From a virus (lineage: Duplodnaviria; Heunggongvirae; Uroviricota; Caudoviricetes): a stretch of 9,735 nt of DNA. The notes under the pieces were generated by a model. That model was given only the letters and a program-made list of their open reading frames with translations. It was not told where the DNA came from and did not search any database. This document shows positions 1 to 9,735 of this stretch, piece by piece (positions within the stretch are counted from its first letter, which is position 1; every line of letters begins with the position of its first letter). Both the position numbers and the translations under genes were made by a program. Location: the IMG/VR virus record IMGVR_UViG_2671180460_000011, positions 1 to 9,735 of that record; one strand, written 5' to 3'.

Positions 1-252
1 TTACCATATTTCGTCACCCGCAGGGGTGGATTTACCCCAGACATCCTGCTCGCTAAGTTCCGCGGCGTTCATGTCACACTGTGCCAGCAGTTCATCAAGC
101 GAGTAGCGCCTGGAGATGGGTGTCAGAATCAGTTGGTTGTTGCTCACCTGCGCTTCCACGCTCTGCCCCGGCTGTAAGTTAAGTTCTTTCATTACGATAT
201 TGGGAATGACCATACCTGCACTGTTCCCCCATCTTTTTATGGTAATACGCAT
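1..252 (-). CDS. chpS: ChpS (ChpBI) antitoxin of the ChpB-ChpS toxin-antitoxin pair, MazE/AbrB-fold; host gene
   Basis: Translation MRITIKRWGNSAGMVIPNIVMKELNLQ...GDEIW (83 aa) matches my recollection of E. coli ChpS and resembles MazE. ATG at 250-252 (rc), GGAGG at 258-262 (rc) 5 nt upstream, stop at 1-3 (rc TAA). The ORF track's start at 258 is an in-frame GTG two codons upstream. Confidence 0.75.
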   Translation of the reverse strand: MRITIKRWGNSAGMVIPNIVMKELNLQPGQSVEAQVSNNQLILTPISRRYSLDELLAQCDMNAAELSEQDVWGKSTPAGDEIW

Positions 253-266
253 CTGCACCTCCTTAA

Positions 267-283
267 GTTATACAAAGTATAAC
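267..283. promoter_or_regulatory. Perfect 7-bp inverted repeat GTTATAC-AAA-GTATAAC just upstream of the chpS RBS; likely operator for TA autoregulation
   Basis: The palindrome is read directly from the sequence. Type II antitoxins of the MazE/ChpS family autoregulate through palindromes overlapping their promoter. Confidence 0.4.
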
Positions 284-457
284 TCACGGTGCTACAGGAA
301 ACGTTTTACCCCTGCACATTTGTGAACGCCAGCAGAGTTTTTTATGCGATTGCAGATATGGAAAGCGGCTCGGAGAGAAAAGCAAAAGATGGAAAAGTTA
401 CAAAAAAAAATCGCGAGATACATCGCATAAAACAACGCCACCCGAAGGTGACATGAA

Positions 458-543: not shown

Positions 544-1539
544 TTATGGGCAATATCTGGACAACTCAGCCACAGGATTAAAGCGCACAGCATCCTGTAG
601 ATAATCCGGTGCAAAATGGGCATAAGTCATCGTCTGCTGAATAGTGCTATGTCCAAGTATTCTCTGCAAAGTGATGATATTCCCACCATTAATCATGAAG
701 TGAGTGGCAAAGGTATGCCGTAAAACATGTATCGACTGCCCTTCAGGAAGATCGGGCCTCACCTTTCTGATAGCAGCTCTGACAGCTGCATAACTTGGAT
801 AAATTAAACGACCAGTGGCCTTTGTTTTAATCATGCACTCCAGTTCTGACGATATAGGTATAACGCGACGCTTCCCATTTTTGGTTTCCATAAAAATGAC
901 TTTGCCGCTAATAACATGCTCCCCCTTGATATTTGCAACCTCACTCCATCTTCCACCTGTTGCCAGACACAACAAGACTGCTTTTAATTCATCACCAGAT
1001 AACAACTCCAGTAATCGTGGAATATCTTCATGATACAAATAAGCCATTTCAGGCTGTTTGATATTAAGTTTTTTCACATCATGAAACGGATTAGCCCCAG
1101 AATATTCCTCTGCGTCAATTAGTTTTGTGAAAAAACCACTCATCATTGCGCAATAACGATTAACCGTGGATTGTTTTATTCCGCGGTTAAGCAACAATAA
1201 CCGATAATTAATTATGTTCTTACGAGTAAGTTGGTCACTGCGTGTAACATTAATACTTTCAAGATCACTAATGACCGCAGAAATACGCACTCGCTCCATC
1301 GAACCGTAAGGATGATTTTTACCGTGATACAACCACCAACAATCCAGCAACTCCCTCAGCGAGCGCCGTTCTGTTGGCTTATCAACCCAGTCTTTGTCGT
1401 GGTAATGCTGCAATACATGACGCTCATACAAAACAGCCTCACCACGAGTATCAAATCGCCGCCTGAATCTCTTTCCTTCTGATCCAGCAGGCCGCACGTC
1501 CACACAAAATTTGCCATTAGCGAGCTTCTTAATCGACAT
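544..1539 (-). CDS. int: Tyrosine recombinase / integrase, P2 Int family
   Basis: 331 aa from MSIKKLANGKFCVDVRPAGSEGKRFRRRF. The C-terminal HVLRHTFATHFMINGGNIITLQRILGHSTIQQTMTYAHFAPDYLQDAV nearly matches the P2 Int catalytic region (HxLRH box, catalytic Tyr in YAHF). ATG at 1537-1539 (rc) with GGAGGG 7 nt upstream. The ORF track's extra 12 N-terminal codons lack an RBS. Confidence 0.9.
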   Translation of the reverse strand: MSIKKLANGKFCVDVRPAGSEGKRFRRRFDTRGEAVLYERHVLQHYHDKDWVDKPTERRSLRELLDCWWLYHGKNHPYGSMERVRISAVISDLESINVTRSDQLTRKNIINYRLLLLNRGIKQSTVNRYCAMMSGFFTKLIDAEEYSGANPFHDVKKLNIKQPEMAYLYHEDIPRLLELLSGDELKAVLLCLATGGRWSEVANIKGEHVISGKVIFMETKNGKRRVIPISSELECMIKTKATGRLIYPSYAAVRAAIRKVRPDLPEGQSIHVLRHTFATHFMINGGNIITLQRILGHSTIQQTMTYAHFAPDYLQDAVRFNPVAELSRYCP

Positions 1540-1605
1540 AAGGAAGCCCTCCAATGAAAACATCATCTTGATCACTGCTCTGGGAAATAAATGCCTGGTG
1601 AACCG

Positions 1606-1899
1606 TTAACCAGTTTTCTTGCCGGAGCGGGATGATTCCACTTCGTCTTGCCCAATGTGTGCGAGAGCCGGTACAACCTGCCCGGCCTTGGGTTCAACTT
1701 CATCAAACAAAAACCAGTCGCGATATTTAGAAAATCTCGGGTGCTTGAAAAGCTTGATAGTGATCTCAAGGCCAGGAAGGTTACGACCATACTCATAACT
1801 GGTCAGAGCAGAATAAGAAATCCCAATCATATCAGCGAATTCCCGCTGAGTGAGATCTTCAGATTTACGCATGACGCGAATTTTTTGAGGAATGTCCAT
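1606..1899 (-). CDS. C: Immunity repressor, P2 C-type (short HTH repressor)
   Basis: 97 aa MDIPQKIRVMRKSEDLTQREFADMIGISYSALTSYEYGRN...PALAHIGQDEVESSRSGKKTG aligns along its length with P2 C as recalled (IVLMRKSE...YGTLSYYESGR...PALAHFGQNE...SGQKTG). ATG at 1897-1899 (rc), AGGAG 8 nt upstream. Same strand as and upstream of int, as in the P2 C-int transcript. Confidence 0.85.
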   Translation of the reverse strand: MDIPQKIRVMRKSEDLTQREFADMIGISYSALTSYEYGRNLPGLEITIKLFKHPRFSKYRDWFLFDEVEPKAGQVVPALAHIGQDEVESSRSGKKTG

Positions 1900-2013
1900 T
1901 TGACAAACTCCTACACATGTGTAGATTAATACCACATATGAACAGCAAACAAATGTTCTAAGTGGTTCCAACTAGTGCCAATTAGAAAAAGCACCAATGG
2001 CGGAGGATATCAG
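1900..2013. promoter_or_regulatory. Lysis-lysogeny switch region: candidate rightward early promoter and operator palindrome
   Basis: TTGACA at 1900-1905 (+), TAGATT at 1922-1927 (16-bp spacer). A 14-bp perfect palindrome CTACACATGTGTAG at 1911-1924 sits between these hexamers. The leftward Pc promoter is expected further right but I could not pin it confidently. Confidence 0.45.
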
Positions 2014-5567: not shown

Positions 5568-5771
5568 ATGAACAAAAAGACCTGGTTTCGCGCATACATG
5601 TGGGCGCTGGTATGCGTCCTCGTCTCTCTCATTCTGTATGCAGGACTACTCCCCCGAATGATTTCATCAGACAGCTCCTTCCTGGTATTGCTGGGCATTT
5701 TCATTGCCATGCTGTACCCGGCAGGCGTTGTTCGCCTTTTCAGTAAGTACATCAAGGAAATCAAACAATGA
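5568..5771 (+). CDS. Small integral membrane protein, two predicted TM helices (67 aa)
   Basis: ATG 5568 with AAAGGA at 5555-5560. Two hydrophobic segments (WALVCVLVSLILYAGLL and FLVLLGIFIAMLYPAGVV) separated by a short polar loop. Stop TGA 5769-5771 overlaps the ATG 5768 of the SPFH gene. Confidence 0.6.
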   Translation: MNKKTWFRAYMWALVCVLVSLILYAGLLPRMISSDSSFLVLLGIFIAMLYPAGVVRLFSKYIKEIKQ

Positions 5772-6598
5772 AGAAATTCAAACTCTTTCAGATTCTCCCG
5801 CTTTTTGCCGCCATCCTGCTGGTTGGTTGCGATCGCGTTGAGCCAGGTAATGTGGGCATCAAAGTCAACAAACTGGGCGACGACAAAGGCGTCGGCGAAG
5901 TGGTTGGCGTTGGCCGCTACTGGACTGGCTGGAATACCGAGGTTTACATCTTCCCGACCTTCAAACAAATGAAGACCTACGATGAGCCGTTCAGCTTCCA
6001 GATGAGTGACGGCACAACCATCGGCTATCACATCGGTGTGGCCTACAAGGTTGATCCATCCAAAGTTACTACAGTGTTTCAGACCTACCGCAAAGGCGTG
6101 GATGACATTACCGACACTGACCTGCGCCAGAAGATCGCCGATGCACTCAACCGACTGGCCAGCAAAATGACCACCGACAAATTTATCGACGGCGGGAAAT
6201 CTGAACTACTGGATGCAGCTCTTAAAGACATTCAGGAGGAAATGACACCCATCGGTATTCAGGTAATGAGCCTCTCATATGTGGGTAAGCCGGAGTACCC
6301 GTCAACCGTTATCGACAGCATTAATGCCAAAGTCACGGCAAACCAGAAAACCCTGCAACGCGAACAGGAAGTCAAGCAACGTGAAGCAGAAGCCAACATG
6401 TTGCGCGCAGAAGCTGCCGGACAGGCTGATGCCATTCGCACAAAAGCCCAGGCTGAAGCCGACGCCATTCGTTTGCGTGGTGAAGCTCTGCGCCAGAATC
6501 CCGGTGTTATGGAGCTGGAAGCGATTAACAAATGGAACGGCACGCTACCGCAATACATGACCAGTAACACCGCTGTTCCGTTTGTTCCGGTGAAGTAA
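5768..6598 (+). CDS. SPFH/band-7 (stomatin/HflK/HflC/prohibitin-like) domain lipoprotein, predicted inner-membrane anchored (276 aa)
   Basis: The N-terminus MKKFKLFQILPLFAAILLVGC-D has a signal peptide and lipobox LVGC (Cys21), with Asp at +2, the classical inner-membrane retention signal. The body has SPFH-like composition and a C-terminal Ala/Glu/Gln/Arg-rich coiled-coil (QREQEVKQREAEANMLRAEAAGQADAIRTKAQAEADAIRLRGEAL) typical of band-7 proteins. Confidence 0.8.
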   Translation: MKKFKLFQILPLFAAILLVGCDRVEPGNVGIKVNKLGDDKGVGEVVGVGRYWTGWNTEVYIFPTFKQMKTYDEPFSFQMSDGTTIGYHIGVAYKVDPSKVTTVFQTYRKGVDDITDTDLRQKIADALNRLASKMTTDKFIDGGKSELLDAALKDIQEEMTPIGIQVMSLSYVGKPEYPSTVIDSINAKVTANQKTLQREQEVKQREAEANMLRAEAAGQADAIRTKAQAEADAIRLRGEALRQNPGVMELEAINKWNGTLPQYMTSNTAVPFVPVK

Positions 6599-6605
6599 TT
6601 CAACC

Positions 6606-6627
6606 CGGCCAGTGAAACCGCTGGCCG
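6606..6627. other. Hairpin (CGGCCAG / 8-nt loop / CTGGCCG) 8 nt after the SPFH stop; no T-tract on either strand
   Basis: 7-bp perfect stem seen in sequence. Not a canonical intrinsic terminator; possibly an RNA-stability or processing element. Confidence 0.3.
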
Positions 6628-6665
6628 AAAATATAACGAATAAACAAAAAGCCAGAGGACAGAGC

Positions 6666-6812
6666 ATGCACAAAGCCTTTGAACGATGGATGCGCCAGCG
6701 TTACGGCAATCGCTATGACCTGACAAGGGATGTTGATGGCTACTACTGCCGCGAAATTGTGAAACGAATGTTTGAAGTGTGGTGTCACGCTCGCGGCCTG
6801 TACGCCGTGTAA
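6666..6812 (+). CDS. Hypothetical small protein (48 aa)
   Basis: ATG 6666 with AGAGGA at 6654-6659. The ORF track's longer version starts at a GTG (6612) inside the upstream hairpin, so I prefer 6666. No family recognised. Confidence 0.4.
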   Translation: MHKAFERWMRQRYGNRYDLTRDVDGYYCREIVKRMFEVWCHARGLYAV

Positions 6813-6951
6813 TCCATGTCACTGTCAGAAGATTAACCCATGTACACACAAAAAAACCGCTTGCCATGCCGTAATCAGTCAGGTTACATTTCCGCTGCAC
6901 CTCATAAAACGGGTGCCGGGTTTCGCAGCCTGCTGACTAGCAAAGCGCACA

Positions 6952-6971
6952 ACCGCGCCAGCGGTTTTTTT
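6952..6971 (+). terminator. Candidate Rho-independent terminator ending the long early operon
   Basis: ACCGC-GCCA-GCGGT hairpin (5-bp stem, 4-nt loop) immediately followed by T7 (6965-6971). The stem is short, so strength is uncertain. Confidence 0.45.
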
Positions 6972-7150
6972 GTGCGTACCGTATCGCCACGTCTTTTTCG
7001 CACACGAATTATGGTGGGGCGTATGGGGCCGACTTCGGTCGGGCCGGGTTCTTTGCTAGCCGGTACTGCGAACCTCGTACGTCTCGCCACCCACAGTTTC
7101 GCAGCTCTGGATGGTGAGTTTTCACAACTTACTAGCAAAGAGGCCACACC

Positions 7151-7378
7151 ATGGCAAACCGCAAACAGCGCGCATACGCTGCGCGTCGTCACATCCAGAC
7201 TGAAATCGATCGCAGACTCACCCGCGCTGCACACATCGCCTTTATCATGCAATCCAACACATTGCACAGACTCAACAGCACTATTTCAGCCGACTACTGC
7301 GCCGCTGTATTCAGCTATCTGGCGGAAGACCTCCTGTCTCTTCAGGATCTCATCCAGCAGCAAAACAAACTCCATTAA
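7151..7378 (+). CDS. Hypothetical phage protein (75 aa)
   Basis: ATG 7151 with AAGAGG at 7138-7143. No family recognised. Confidence 0.5.
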   Translation: MANRKQRAYAARRHIQTEIDRRLTRAAHIAFIMQSNTLHRLNSTISADYCAAVFSYLAEDLLSLQDLIQQQNKLH

Positions 7379-7450
7379 TTACGGTACCAGGTCTCTCCTG
7401 CACTTTGCGGCGGGAGGCCTGCGCACATCTTTAACAAAGCGAGGTGCAGC

Positions 7451-7840
7451 ATGATTGACCGTCATGACTTCGTAAAATGGGTGCGCACACAGGACACCCG
7501 TCTGGCTCCAAAACTTCAGGCAATGTTTGATCTCTATCTCCGTGCCCGTGCCAGCCAGGCACGCACCACAAAACCGGAGAACACAGACACCCTTTATTTC
7601 ACCGTGGACGACTGTTACCGCGTGGTCTTCACACCACACGGTCTGGCCCTGTACACCCTGACACCACGCAGCGACTCCCTGCTGGCGTATTACAACTCCC
7701 CGGCTTCTGTATTTGCAGCCATACTGGCGCATCGCACCGCTGGCGGGTGTGCATCGCTGAATGAATACACCGCTGAATTTAACCGCCTGTCCGCCCTCTT
7801 CTCGCAGGAGTGGCAGCGCGTGACGGGATACCAGCCATGA
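7451..7840 (+). CDS. Hypothetical phage protein (129 aa), translationally coupled to gene A
   Basis: ATG 7451 with GAGG at 7441-7444. Stop TGA 7838-7840 overlaps the ATG 7837 of A (ATGA). Confidence 0.55.
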   Translation: MIDRHDFVKWVRTQDTRLAPKLQAMFDLYLRARASQARTTKPENTDTLYFTVDDCYRVVFTPHGLALYTLTPRSDSLLAYYNSPASVFAAILAHRTAGGCASLNEYTAEFNRLSALFSQEWQRVTGYQP

Positions 7841-9735
7841 GTGAGTTTGCATGGAGCTGGAATGAACCGCAGCCAGCCATTGATCCGGACGACTTCGCGA
7901 ACTTCAGTCGGTTGCCAAAAACCGGACTGCAACGCGCCATTCGTTACTACCGCGAAGCGGACAAAAAGGCTCAGGAAGAACAGGAAGCGAAGGAAGAAGC
8001 CCTTTTCGCACAATCCGATACAGGCAAAAAACTCATGGCGTCCCTTGAGGAAGCCGGGCAACGCGAAAAACTGATAAAAAACATCATCAGTAAGCGCCAG
8101 GAAATAAAGCAAGACCCGGTGGCCCGTGCCTTTGCCAAACTGAAGGCACTTCCCGTTTATTTGCGTGCCCCCCTGAGCCGCCGCCTCTCTTTTTTGCGTA
8201 AAAAGCAAGAGTCAGACCGCCAGAAAGGGAAAAAAGCCAGTCAGGCTGACGGGTACGCGCAGGGAACGCTGCGCAAGATATTCGAACGTCTGGACCGCAC
8301 CGACCGCCGCTGGCTGACCCCGGCTTATTGCGCCCTTGCCGGACGTGAACGCCTGGACGATTTGCTGTACCTGCCGCAGCTTAACAAGCACCAGATACAG
8401 ACGCTGGCCACCATGACTGCGGCGATGTTCAGCTGCACCTTCGAAAAACTCTGCGATGGCTTTGGCGCGACTGATGGCGAGCTGACCATGGATGTAACGC
8501 TGAAGGCATATCAGATGCTGGCCCGCATGGCGTTACACCTGCACGCCATGCCGCCACATTATGACGCACTGACAACAGATAAAGACCGGAGGAACGAACC
8601 GGACACGGAGCTGCTGCCGGGCGCAATCCTTCGCCTGACCTGTGCGGAATGGTGGAAACGCAAACTGTGGCTGTTACGTTGCGAGTGGAGAGAAGAACAA
8701 CTCCGCGCCGCCTGTCTGGTTTCCAGAAAAACATCACCCTATCTGAGCCAGGACGCGTTAAGCGAGTTTCGCGCACAGCGCGAGAAAACACGCGATTTCC
8801 TGAAAAGTTTCATGCTGGAAAATGAAGACGGGTTCACGATTGATCTCGAGACGGTGTATTACGCGGGAGTAAGTAACCCGGTTCACCGTAAGGCAGAAAT
8901 GATGGCCACCATGAAGGGACTGGAACTTCTGGCCGAAGCCCGTGGCGACAGAGCGGTGTTTCTGACCGTCACCTGCCCGTCAAAATACCACGCAACAACG
9001 GAGAACGGTCATCCGAACCCCAAATGGAACGGGGCCACCATGCGCGATTCCAGCGATTACCTGGTTAACACGTTTTTTAAGGCGGTCCGCAAAAAACTGA
9101 ACCGCGACGGCCTGCGCTGGTATGGCATTCGCACGGTGGAGCCTCACCATGACGGCACCGTGCACTGGCACATGATGGTCTTTGCACATCCGGAAGAAAT
9201 CGACAGCATCGTGGACATCACCCGTGATATTGCCATTCGCGAAGACCGCCACGAGCTGGGCAATGACATAACTCCGCGCTTTAAGGCAGAGTACGTCGAC
9301 GGTTCGAAAGGTACGCCGACCAGCTACATCGCCACCTACATCGGAAAGAACCTGGACAGCCGCGCCGTGGATGGCATTGACCCGAAAACAGGCAAACCGC
9401 GCATCGACGACGAATCAGGAAAGACGATGGCAGAAAGCGTGGAACGCGCCATCGGCTGGGCGCGCCTTCACCGGGTCCGCCAGTTCCAGTTCTTTGGCAT
9501 CCCCTCCCGTCAGGTATGGCGTGAACTGCGCCGCCTTGCCTGTCAGATGGCACGTAACCCACAGGGACCGCAACGTCTGGAAAATGACGCAATGGATGCG
9601 GTTCTTGCTGCCGCTGATGCCGGATGTTTTGCCACCTACATAGAGAAACAGGGCGGCGTGCTTGTTCCACGCAAAGACTACCTGATTCGCACCGCCTACG
9701 ACCTCGCAGATGAGCTGAACGATTACGGCGAACAG
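7837..9735 (+). CDS. A: Rolling-circle replication initiator endonuclease, P2 gpA family; 3' end lies beyond the window
   Basis: Frame open from ATG 7837 to the window end (633 codons); I checked it codon by codon. Absent from the ORF track, presumably because no stop lies in the window. Contains the HUH-type motif EPHHDGTVHWHMMVF (HWH at 9162-9170). Its position as last gene of the early operon fits P2 A. Confidence 0.85.
   Translation, partial: MSEFAWSWNEPQPAIDPDDFANFSRLPKTGLQRAIRYYREADKKAQEEQEAKEEALFAQSDTGKKLMASLEEAGQREKLIKNIISKRQEIKQDPVARAFAKLKALPVYLRAPLSRRLSFLRKKQESDRQKGKKASQADGYAQGTLRKIFERLDRTDRRWLTPAYCALAGRERLDDLLYLPQLNKHQIQTLATMTAAMFSCTFEKLCDGFGATDGELTMDVTLKAYQMLARMALHLHAMPPHYDALTTDKDRRNEPDTELLPGAILRLTCAEWWKRKLWLLRCEWREEQLRAACLVSRKTSPYLSQDALSEFRAQREKTRDFLKSFMLENEDGFTIDLETVYYAGVSNPVHRKAEMMATMKGLELLAEARGDRAVFLTVTCPSKYHATTENGHPNPKWNGATMRDSSDYLVNTFFKAVRKKLNRDGLRWYGIRTVEPHHDGTVHWHMMVFAHPEEIDSIVDITRDIAIREDRHELGNDITPRFKAEYVDGSKGTPTSYIATYIGKNLDSRAVDGIDPKTGKPRIDDESGKTMAESVERAIGWARLHRVRQFQFFGIPSRQVWRELRRLACQMARNPQGPQRLENDAMDAVLAAADAGCFATYIEKQGGVLVPRKDYLIRTAYDLADELNDYGEQ

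Follow-up and report, generated by a model that had tools for sequence, protein, structure and literature searches.

A putative RNA immunity module of the IsrK–C4 type in the early operon of a P2-like prophage

Results

The window analysed here is the whole 9,735-nt stretch of viral record IMGVR_UViG_2671180460_000011, and the region under study (6813–7150) is a repeat-rich gap upstream of the replication gene; all features lie on the plus strand unless noted. A sequence-only reading of this DNA had offered a small RNA gene as one explanation of the gap and an Rfam scan as a way to check it. Two models match above threshold: isrK (RF01394, 65.5 bits, threshold 50) at 6897–6971, corresponding to an IsrK/seqA-type small RNA, and C4 (RF01695, 79.9 bits, threshold 45), matched over the full model (1–87) at 7007–7094 and corresponding to a C4 or CI-type antisense RNA that begins 35 nt downstream of the IsrK-type RNA. 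By these matches, the gap contains two known phage regulatory RNA genes, IsrK/seqA and C4/CI.

The IsrK-type RNA comprises hairpin 1 (6897–6916), hairpin 2 (6917–6932), which presents repeat a1, and a single-stranded stretch (6937–6945) holding repeat b1. The terminator-like hairpin with T7 that had been noticed earlier is present at 6951–6966 in a terminator scan, followed by seven T (U in the RNA) and spanning to 6971. A predicted sigma-70 promoter (TTGCCA, 18-nt spacer, TACATT) at 6861–6890 is the sole promoter-like site within 6600–7500; its -10 element is conserved in the alignment, and its predicted start is near 6897, the position at which the Rfam isrK match starts. The c4-a1b1 model, which describes the P1 type (RF03163), scores 20.5 bits in the window, under its threshold of 46.7, and 56.2 bits in the P1-like locus L013; on this basis, the window has an upstream element of the IsrK rather than the P1 type.

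The C4-type RNA has a closing stem of 17 bp (7012–7028 with 7073–7089), a UUCG-tetraloop hairpin (CCGAC-TTCG-GTCGG, 7029–7042) that was already recognised from the letters, and a second hairpin (7043–7064) with b' in its loop. Its minimum-energy fold coincides with the family consensus (-44 kcal/mol, z -4.3). The tRNA-like stem is followed by ACC at 7089–7091, and the mature RNA is predicted to span approximately 7012–7090. The minimum-energy fold of the full read-through RNA (6897–7165) differs from the C4 fold, with a1 and b1 paired in cis with a' and b'; production of C4 would therefore require co-transcriptional folding or processing. An attenuator with mutually exclusive folds had also been proposed for the region. 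Alternative cis folds are indeed predicted, but a simple cis attenuator does not fit.

The repeats themselves are as the sequence-only reading placed them, together with the hairpins, and are far above chance. CTAGCAAAG occurs directly at 6937–6945 (b1) and 7132–7140 (b2) and inverted, on the minus strand, at 7051–7059 (b', reading CTTTGCTAG), three matches where 0.06 are expected and a number reached in none of 200 shuffles. GTTTCGCAGC occurs at 6920–6929 (a1) and 7096–7105 (a2), two matches against 0.04 expected, and again none of 200 shuffles reaches two. The third repeat, which contains TCGCCAC, is found as CGTATCGCCAC (6980–6990) and CGTCTCGCCAC (7080–7090) with a spacing of exactly 100 nt. 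That reading did not recognise the RNA family.

The inverted copy, which C4 hairpin 2 holds in its loop, shows 100% complementarity to each of the direct copies and can pair with either, as had been claimed; with the downstream copy the pairing extends to 10 nt (7050–7059 with 7132–7141). This pairing does overlap the Shine-Dalgarno sequence of the gene at 7151, since b2 and AAGAGG (7138–7143, 7 nt upstream of the ATG) overlap within 7132–7143. The single-stranded C4 junction holds a' (CTGCGAA, 7066–7072), which is complementary to the core of a1 (TTCGCAG, 6922–6928) and has a2, in the leader of the 7151 gene, as its predicted target. The downstream copy of the third repeat is the 3' arm of the C4 closing stem, a point missed earlier. 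Its upstream copy (GCGTACCGTATCGCCAC, 6975–6990) mimics this arm and, in the minimum-energy fold of the window's read-through RNA, pairs with the C4 5' arm. We considered whether this partnership is conserved and rejected the idea, as across 30 loci it is 68% paired, the same as shuffles, with 2 double changes; the pairing may be specific to the P88 group. Conversely, a mimic of the 5' arm (7112–7118, within GGATGGTGAG) can pair with the C4 3' arm (7083–7089), putting a2 in a hairpin loop. The alignment supports conservation of this alternative helix, with 95.7% pairing (31–69% when slid) and a score that none of 500 shuffles reaches.

Covariation in related prophages had been named as a check on the repeats, and in a comparison set of 30 related phage loci they do co-vary as complements. 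The covariation is three-way for both sets (a1/a'/a2 and b1/b'/b2), the observed fit being reached in none of 5000 permutations. Complementarity to the locus' own partner exceeds that to non-own partners for b'/b2 (8.6 against 4.4 nt), b'/b1 (6.9 against 4.3), a'/a1 (6.9 against 3.8), and a'/a2 (7.1 against 4.1), with none of 5000 permutations matching in each case, and this across 23 distinct b' and 15 distinct a' variants. The a1:a' and b1:b' pairings hold in 91.7% of cells (29–47% when slid; covariation score 0.73). The helices of the IsrK-type RNA also co-vary. For the structure, 95% of cells are paired, 117 are changed on both sides, and none of 500 shuffles is as good; the three C4 helices are 99.6–100% paired, with changes on both sides in 14 of 27 pairs. 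The calculated b':b2 duplex (-20.7 kcal/mol) covers the Shine-Dalgarno AAGAGG. Duplexes with the own leader range from -21.5 to -32.5 kcal/mol and those with non-own leaders from -9.8 to -23.2 kcal/mol, and the own leader is the best target for each C4 tested (7/7). In 28 of the 30 loci b2 ends 9–15 nt upstream of the ATG, and in the remaining 2 it overlaps the ATG. The isrK–C4 tandem is 23–35 nt apart in all 14 related non-P1 phage loci examined; in the P1-like locus, c4-a1b1 is followed by C4 70 nt downstream.

The first gene downstream, and the first predicted to be under b2 control, encodes a 75-aa protein (7151–7378) related to P4 epsilon, the derepression protein (BLASTP, 33% identity over 51 aa, E 7e-9), and is a putative anti-repressor gene; the C repressor of the prophage is encoded at 1606–1971 on the minus strand. 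The protein matches phrog_3688 over its full length; it scores 22 bits with Pfam Derepression, under the threshold of 27, and the P88 ortholog scores 31.8 bits. It is followed by a 129-aa gene (7451–7840, phrog_3237), whose product gave no similarity to P4 orf151 in a BLASTP comparison, and by gene A (7837–9735), which begins with an ATG overlapping the 129-aa stop codon and runs past the window end; 'replication endonuclease' is annotated at this position in relatives. The order epsilon-like gene, 129-aa gene, gene A from 7837 fits the earlier suggestion that the region controls entry into the replication module.

The region had been labelled non-coding, a label that needs qualifying: an open reading frame of 204 codons (6840–7454, taken from a mechanical ORF list), the counterpart of P4 eta and here called 'Ash'/eta-like, spans it. 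Its ATG is 57 nt upstream of the IsrK start; from there the frame continues across the two RNA genes and, in a different phase, across the 75-aa gene, and it ends with a stop that overlaps the ATG of the 129-aa gene (ATGA). Such an open frame would arise by chance with a probability of 0.011 over the 338-nt region and of 0.009 over the 75-aa gene, and the frame is open to the ATGA junction in 11 of 12 P88-like copies. With Pfam Phage_ASH (PF10554), the product scores 25.5 bits, 0.5 bit short of the threshold of 26; P4, lambdoid, and Hafnia counterparts score 48.6–59.7 bits, the P4 ORF laid over the CI RNA reaching 59.7. BLASTP between the 204-aa product and the P4 cI ORF found no similarity, though both match Phage_ASH, and NCBIfam gave zero matches for the 75-aa, 129-aa, and 204-aa products. 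A shorter frame from the ATG at 7011 has 147 codons. Codon-position counts in five P88-like copies, compared to choose between the 75-aa frame and the long-ORF frame, show a weak third-position excess for the former (18/16/24) and are not decisive. We also asked whether a frame kept from IsrK to C4 points to a protein and rejected this: the distances agree modulo 3 in 24 of 30 loci, but this amounts to 3 of 6 length classes, against about 2 by chance.

Discussion

We conclude, with considerable confidence, that the early operon of this P2-like (P88-type, Xuanwuvirus) prophage has in this region a secondary immunity module that is based on RNA and of the IsrK(seqA)–C4(CI) type. The pair is an antisense 'RNA immunity' switch as in phages P1 and P4, of which it is an ordinary member. 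By analogy, the module probably guards the anti-repressor-like gene and the replication gene of the prophage.

In P1 and P4, the C4-type RNA is excised from a longer transcript by RNase P and is stable, with a length of approximately 77–80 nt. By homology with such systems, we suggest that the promoter at 6861–6890 acts in vivo and that transcription starts near 6897, with the majority of transcripts stopping at the intrinsic terminator to give a 75-nt IsrK-type RNA bearing a1 and b1. Read-through transcripts would bear the C4-type RNA (7007–7094), which would be excised and accumulate as its P1 and P4 homologues do. Its single-stranded b' loop and a' junction would then base-pair with their targets b2 and a2 ahead of the 7151 gene. 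As b2 covers the Shine-Dalgarno, we propose that translation of the epsilon-like 75-aa gene, a putative anti-repressor gene, is blocked, and polarity would extend the block to the 129-aa gene and to gene A. The earlier suggestions of a small RNA gene and of sequestration of a ribosome binding site are thus both supported, the latter by the complementarity of the C4 loop to b2; masking would be mainly by processed RNA in trans, as in P1 c4, P4 CI, and N15. The a1/b1 pair would constitute a second target set, which may tie up a' and b' in cis before the transcript is processed or serve as a trans-acting decoy. Transcription from the early promoter further upstream takes in the ATG at 6840, and such transcripts would therefore be translatable through the whole module by way of the eta-like ORF. 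In P4, eta, an internal promoter, and escape from termination by translation have been described, and translation of the eta ORF makes transcription insensitive to the immunity RNA (PMC10111431). IsrK, its read-through mRNA, and a processed RNA of approximately 80 nt, STnc1160, have also been described (PMC4825925); for the immunity RNAs of P1 and P4, see also PMC3632133.

The C4-type RNA might instead act mainly in the P4 manner, ending transcription early, at the IsrK terminator or at a downstream Rho-dependent site, through pairing with a1/b1 and a2/b2 in nascent RNA rather than by blocking a ribosome site as such. We regard this as a real possibility, though not the one we would choose. 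P4 seqA and CI belong to the same Rfam families, the succession of an epsilon-like gene, a gene of unknown function, and a replication gene mirrors P4 epsilon-orf151-alpha, an eta-like ORF with an internal promoter is present, and termination control by CI, seqA, and seqC has been described (PMC10111431, PMC4825925). However, b2 is on the Shine-Dalgarno here and on the start region in all 30 loci, which is the P1 arrangement for translational repression. Termination and a translational block are not mutually exclusive, because untranslated RNA invites Rho.

It is somewhat less probable, and in our view unlikely, that the module is an activator of the kind described for Gifsy-1, where IsrK RNA would bind the a'/b' region of an inactive read-through mRNA in trans and so activate translation from the ATG at 7011 and of the downstream genes. 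The sequence ATG-GTG-GGG-CGT-ATG at 7011 matches the two in-frame orf45 starts, 12–13 nt apart, and the fold of 6897–7165 pairs the middle of IsrK with a'/b' in cis, like 'structure A' (PMC4825925). The frame from this ATG is also open to the ATGA junction in the same 11 of 12 P88-like copies, yet stop codons interrupt it in 7 of the 30 loci. Activation leaves the covariation of a2/b2 with a'/b' and the constant position of b2 on the start region unexplained. Such a read-out is compatible with the immunity model rather than opposed to it.

Building on the immunity model, we can sketch a role for the long ORF, although we hold it only as a speculative and rather improbable extension. In P88-type P2-like phages, the eta-like ORF would have been extended out of frame across the epsilon-like gene to the ATGA junction, giving three overlapping layers (two RNA genes, two protein frames). 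Ribosomes from ATG 6840 on early-promoter transcripts, or from ATG 7011 on read-through transcripts, would traverse IsrK, C4, and a2/b2, override RNA immunity, and couple into the 129-aa gene and gene A. A helper-type phage with its own CI-type RNA and epsilon-type protein could also cross-talk with P4-like satellites of the same a/b specificity.

That the region is a plain protein-coding gene for an 'Ash family' transcriptional regulator, with the repeats incidental, is very improbable. The 204-codon frame is open beyond chance and has PHROG and Pfam matches, and NCBI's pipeline and some submitters annotate an 'ash family protein'. However, the matches are confined to the stretch occupied by the RNA genes (aa 16–107 for Phage_ASH; aa 4–114 for the PHROG 'transcriptional repressor' families), and the P4 prototype of that label is the old cI ORF laid over the CI RNA. 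The repeats co-vary as RNA complements, altering amino acids. In E. coli UTI89 the frame is broken by 6 stops, and the pipeline treats the ORF as complete in one genome but as 'incomplete' in others. The suggestion that the direct repeats are iterons or operator-like DNA sites for a phage protein (replication protein A or a repressor) draws on their spacing of 176–195 nt near a replication gene, but is scarcely credible: each repeat has two direct copies only, the third copy is inverted in an RNA hairpin loop, two RNA covariance models match the region, and across the 30 loci the three copies change together (23 b' variants) yet stay Watson-Crick complements of the hairpin loop, which is the signature of RNA–RNA pairing and not of a DNA-binding site.

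Recognition of the module as one of RNA immunity explains the repeats and predicts which P88-like prophages are hetero-immune at a second immunity locus; at least eight b' and at least four a' variants occur among 12 close relatives (P88-like). The part from C4 to epsilon, at a coverage of at least 80%, is found in approximately 1,091 of 5,426 complete E. coli genomes, where the module is annotated as 'hypothetical protein', 'ash family protein (incomplete)', or 'transcriptional repressor' and not as two regulatory RNAs. Among the papers searched, none linked isrK or C4 with P2-like phages. That helper-type P2-like phages carry homologues of the immunity RNA and epsilon protein of the P4 satellite bears on helper–satellite evolution. 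The main value of the present analysis lies in annotation and interpretation.

Comparison with known systems

The module type is already known from P1/P7 immI, P4, N15, and Gifsy-1, and the window does not reveal a new mechanism. The seqA and CI RNAs of P4 match the isrK and C4 Rfam models, as the window RNAs do. In both, a long ORF (8168–8812 on the minus strand in P4) starts upstream of an internal promoter and spans both RNA genes, so that the predicted promoter is inside the long ORF here just as P4 PLE is inside eta, and in both a derepression-family protein is encoded next after the module, with replication genes beyond it. The two differ in spacing, with 35 nt between IsrK and C4 in the window and 107 nt in P4. 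In the window, 56 nt separate C4 from the start of the epsilon-like gene, whose Shine-Dalgarno is overlapped by b2 and which is enclosed, in another frame, by the long ORF; P4 epsilon begins approximately 245 nt beyond CI, at the end of eta. For replication, the window encodes a P2-type A endonuclease and P4 the alpha primase, and the host element is a P2-like phage rather than a satellite.

Like the window, Gifsy-1 of Salmonella (IsrK-orf45-anrP, with STnc1160) has an RNA of the IsrK family whose middle forms a cis helix with RNA further downstream, and in both an ATGA links the ORF to the gene that follows (PMC4825925). The ORF from a start inside the C4-type RNA has 147 codons in the window, where it overlaps another gene out of frame, against 45 in Gifsy-1. 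The downstream protein is epsilon-like in the window and an anti-repressor of the Rha/AnrP type in Gifsy-1, and the elements are a P2-like and a lambdoid prophage, respectively. The anti-immunity locus of N15 (CA RNA, icd-like gene, anti-repressor) differs in downstream genes and replicon type, but it likewise has isrK and then C4 before small ORFs and an anti-repressor, and its a/b complementarity matches.

The P1/P7 immI locus (a1b1, c4 RNA, a2b2, icd, ant1/2), whose c4 mechanism was reportedly established by Citron and Schuster (1990/1992) and Biere et al. (1992), shares the C4 fold with the window. The upstream element of the window fits isrK and ends in an intrinsic terminator, unlike that of P1, and the downstream protein is epsilon-like, not Icd or Ant. 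In both, a' and b' are complementary to two target sets, and b2 coincides with the ribosome site of the ORF that follows first. In P1/P7, a/b sequence variants determine immunity specificity, and the P1-like locus L013 belongs to the alignment family of the window.

Identity and anatomy of the RNA module

Scanned against Rfam at gathering thresholds, the whole window yields two matches and no more, both within the repeat-rich region at 6813-7150: isrK (RF01394) at 6897-6971, with 65.5 bits against a threshold of 50, and the C4 antisense RNA (RF01695) at 7007-7094, with 79.9 bits against 45. A small RNA gene, one of the possibilities raised by the sequence-only reading, is thereby borne out. 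The features listed in that reading (the repeats, both hairpins and AAGAGG) were all in place when we read 6600-7400, and they correspond one-to-one to IsrK-C4 anatomy. Identity and anatomy, as established here, make the module a member of a well-described RNA family, in a P2-like Xuanwuvirus prophage.

The sole promoter-like site predicted in 6600-7500 (TTGCCA-18-TACATT, 6861-6890) has a predicted start at ~6897, where the isrK match begins. The IsrK-type RNA contains the upstream targets a1 (GTTTCGCAGC, 6920-6929) and b1 (CTAGCAAAG, 6937-6945, plus strand), and its 3' end is a terminator-like hairpin (6951-6966) with T7. Region 7007-7094 is predicted to fold into the C4 family consensus (-44 kcal/mol, z -4.3): the UUCG hairpin (7029-7042) is hairpin 1, the loop of hairpin 2 holds b' (CTTTGCTAG, 7051-7059), the inverted copy of CTAGCAAAG, which reads on the minus strand, and the single-stranded junction holds a' (CTGCGAA, 7066-7072). 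The closing stem of C4, 17 bp long, has as its 3' arm the downstream copy of a third repeat (CGTCTCGCCAC, 7080-7090), spaced 100 nt from the upstream copy (CGTATCGCCAC, 6980-6990). In the leader of the next gene lie a2 (GTTTCGCAGC, 7096-7105), complementary like a1 to a', and b2 (CTAGCAAAG, 7132-7140, plus strand), which sits on the Shine-Dalgarno sequence AAGAGG (7138-7143), 7 nt before the ATG at 7151. Over the two strands together CTAGCAAAG has three matches against 0.06 expected, a number that no shuffle reaches, and GTTTCGCAGC has two against 0.04.

We also note a 23-nt inverted repeat, 91% complementary, between GTACACACAAAAAAACCGCTTGC (6842-6864), upstream of the IsrK promoter, and GCCAGCGGTTTTTTTGTGCGTAC (6957-6979); the partner of the first arm is the 3' half of the IsrK terminator together with its U-tract. 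The repeat, which only the P88 group shows, may serve early-promoter transcripts as an anti-terminator; alternatively, its A-tract might be a promoter UP element.

Pairing across loci and alternative folds

Fifteen phage loci were fetched, and a pattern scan of viral contigs supplied ~120 more. All 15 fetched loci have isrK followed by C4 with a gap of 23-35 nt, except the P1-like one, where C4 follows c4-a1b1 at a distance of 70 nt. Thirty loci with differing C4 effector sequences were chosen for alignment. In the internal helices 95% of cells are paired, and both sides have changed in 117 cells (34 in shuffles); for the long-range pairs a1:a' and b1:b', pairing is 91.7%, compared with 29-47% in slid controls, and the covariation score is 0.73 against at most 0.17. 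The a and b repeats thus co-vary in related regions, a comparison that the sequence-only reading had called for. An alignment-free test set each C4's own targets against those of other loci: complementarity was 8.6 nt (own) and 4.4 nt (non-own) for b'/b2, 6.9 and 4.3 nt for b'/b1, 6.9 and 3.8 nt for a'/a1, and 7.1 and 4.1 nt for a'/a2, the own value being reached in 0 of 5000 permutations each time. For all seven C4s tested, the own leader forms the strongest predicted duplex (predicted energies run from -21.5 to -32.5 kcal/mol for own leaders and from -9.8 to -23.2 kcal/mol for those of other loci). Of the 30 loci, 28 have a b2 element ending 9-15 nt ahead of the start codon, and in the remaining two b2 overlaps that codon. 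The loci carry 23 different b' and 15 different a', which assort independently, and these specificity elements are the chief differences among the closest relatives: the b element is CTAGCAAAG in the window, CAACTACAG in P88, CTACACAAG in vB_EcoM-569R5 and CAACCAAAG in Shae_phiSM. Own-target pairing of this kind is the mark of an antisense RNA immunity whose specificity can be exchanged, as it is between P1 and P7.

The sequence-only reading had also raised mutually exclusive structures. For the read-through RNA 6897-7165, the fold of lowest energy (z -4.1) differs from the C4 fold: a' and b' pair in cis with a1 and b1, the upstream copy of the third repeat pairs with the C4 5' arm, and the C4 3' arm pairs with the downstream GGATGGTGAG, which leaves a2 looped and the Shine-Dalgarno sequence free. 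The helix between the 3' arm (7083-7089) and 7112-7118 (alignment columns 224-230 and 257-263) is a conserved alternative, 95.7% paired in the 30 loci, where 16 cells have changes on each side of the helix, and its score is matched in 0 of 500 shuffles; its downstream partner mimics the 5' arm (GGTGGTGAG in most phages), and the helix sets a2 in a hairpin loop. The helix of the 5' arm with the upstream repeat has no covariation support in the same loci, so mutually exclusive folds are partially supported, beside a trans-acting RNA. The remaining proposal, iteron-like protein-binding sites, is excluded by the own-target complementarity and covariation of the repeats.

Some contigs hold more than one module. 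Viral contig L026 (IMGVR_UViG_2671181028_000005) has three tandem IsrK-C4 modules at ~9634-11233, 656 nt apart and each different in a/b specificity, and contig L060 has two at ~9058-10192. In Yersinia phage vB_YpM_39 (L010), a ryfA RNA (RF00126, 134.6 bits; 115-413, minus strand) lies ~1 kb upstream of IsrK-C4.

The long ORF

The region had been described as non-coding. A 204-codon ORF (6840-7454) in fact passes through it, but its family matches, to Pfam Phage_ASH (PF10554; 25.5 bits, threshold 26) and to PHROG 'transcriptional repressor/regulator' families, cover only the stretch holding the RNA genes. The P4 CDS 'cI gene product, transcriptional repressor' is likewise an old ORF over CI RNA (Phage_ASH, 59.7 bits), and the 'Ash'/repressor label therefore stems from the RNA genes. 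Phage_ASH and several PHROG families align exactly with translated IsrK-C4 RNA genes (window 6840-7454, P4 8168-8584, L004 1146-2297, L014 1241-1924); in L004 the match, aa 117-213, is the stretch from isrK to b2. In one genome the NCBI annotation pipeline names the ORF an 'ash family protein'; in others it marks it 'incomplete, missing C-terminus'. P88 has a minus-strand 'hypothetical protein' annotated over the RNAs.

The ORF is nevertheless probably not meaningless. Its ATG at 6840 is 57 nt upstream of the IsrK start, and each of the four P88-group sequences examined has an in-frame ATG at this place, 57-60 nt upstream. Starting from the ATG at 7011, 11 of 12 P88-like copies keep the frame open as far as an ATGA junction with the following gene, although their epsilon alleles fall into two divergent forms and the downstream gene is of two different kinds. 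By chance, the frame would be open with a probability of ~0.011 over the 338-nt region and, from synonymous resampling, of 0.009 over the 75-aa gene (0.076 for the P88 allele). Counting against the ORF, 7 of the 30 wider loci have in-frame stops, and the twelfth P88-like copy, from E. coli UTI89, is broken by six. The distance from the C4 ATG to the epsilon-like ATG also differs by 2 nt in that copy.

Genomic context

The window is a P2-like prophage of P88 type (Xuanwuvirus) that encodes an integrase (544-1575, minus strand), an HTH repressor (1606-1971, minus strand), Cox and early genes. Between an SPFH lipoprotein gene (5768-6598) and the RNA module lies a 66-aa gene (phrog_3871, function unknown; 6612-6812), whose site has no annotated gene in P88 or the closest E. 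coli relative (L016) and whose stop codon shares frame with the long ORF. After the module come the 75-aa epsilon-like gene (7151-7378), a 129-aa gene (7451-7840) and, by an ATGA overlap, gene A (replication endonuclease), which starts at 7837 and extends past the window end. P88, vB_EcoM-569R5 and Citrobacter phage Shae_phiSM match the region at 88-93% identity, and the stretch 6990-7460, which runs from shortly before C4 to where the 129-aa gene begins, is found in 1,091 of 5,426 complete E. coli genomes at coverage of at least 80%. The epsilon-like protein (window, L001-L003, L016, L138-L144) has two alleles sharply distinct mid-protein, …RLTRAAHIAFIMQSNTLHRLNSTISADY… and …RLSRASRVAQIMHINMLHERSHALSNIY…; their free combination with differing a/b specificities and two unrelated downstream genes (129 aa and 121 aa) indicates mosaic recombination.

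Proposed mechanism and relation to known systems

We consider C4 immunity, by analogy with P1, P4, N15 and Gifsy-1, the most likely account of the module; the RNA processing, repression and anti-repressor role are inferred from the same systems. Transcripts from the internal promoter would give the IsrK-type RNA, and read-through with processing the C4-type RNA. By b':b2 pairing, aided by a':a2, C4 would mask the ribosome site of the epsilon-like gene, so that in the lysogen this gene and, through polarity, the 129-aa gene and gene A would be silenced. The a1/b1 set may work in cis as a sequestrator or in trans as a decoy. Early-promoter transcripts, being translated, would escape C4 control.

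Our literature search found no description of such a module in P2-like Xuanwuvirus prophages. Hershko-Shalev et al. described IsrK, its read-through mRNA, translated from two in-frame AUGs, and an ~80-nt processed RNA, STnc1160 (PMC4825925); we place these AUGs in the motif found in the window at 7011. The immunity region of P4 matches the two Rfam models found in the window: its isrK match (8615-8692, minus strand) is seqA, its C4 match (8420-8507, minus strand) is CI RNA, and a long ORF (8168..8812, minus strand), which we equate with eta, starts upstream of seqA and ends on the epsilon start. The P4 constitutive promoter is internal to eta, which is translated only from the upstream late promoter, and eta translation prevents termination (PMC10111431). 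We take ORF 6840-7454 to be eta-like, and it may plausibly be translated. The 75-aa protein is 33% identical over 51 aa to P4 epsilon, the helper derepression protein (E 7e-9); against the Pfam Derepression threshold of 27, its P88 ortholog scores above (31.8 bits) and the window copy below (22 bits). The link between these systems is already known: IsrK has been equated with seqA and C4 with CI RNA, and similar systems noted in P1, P7 and N15 (PMC3632133).
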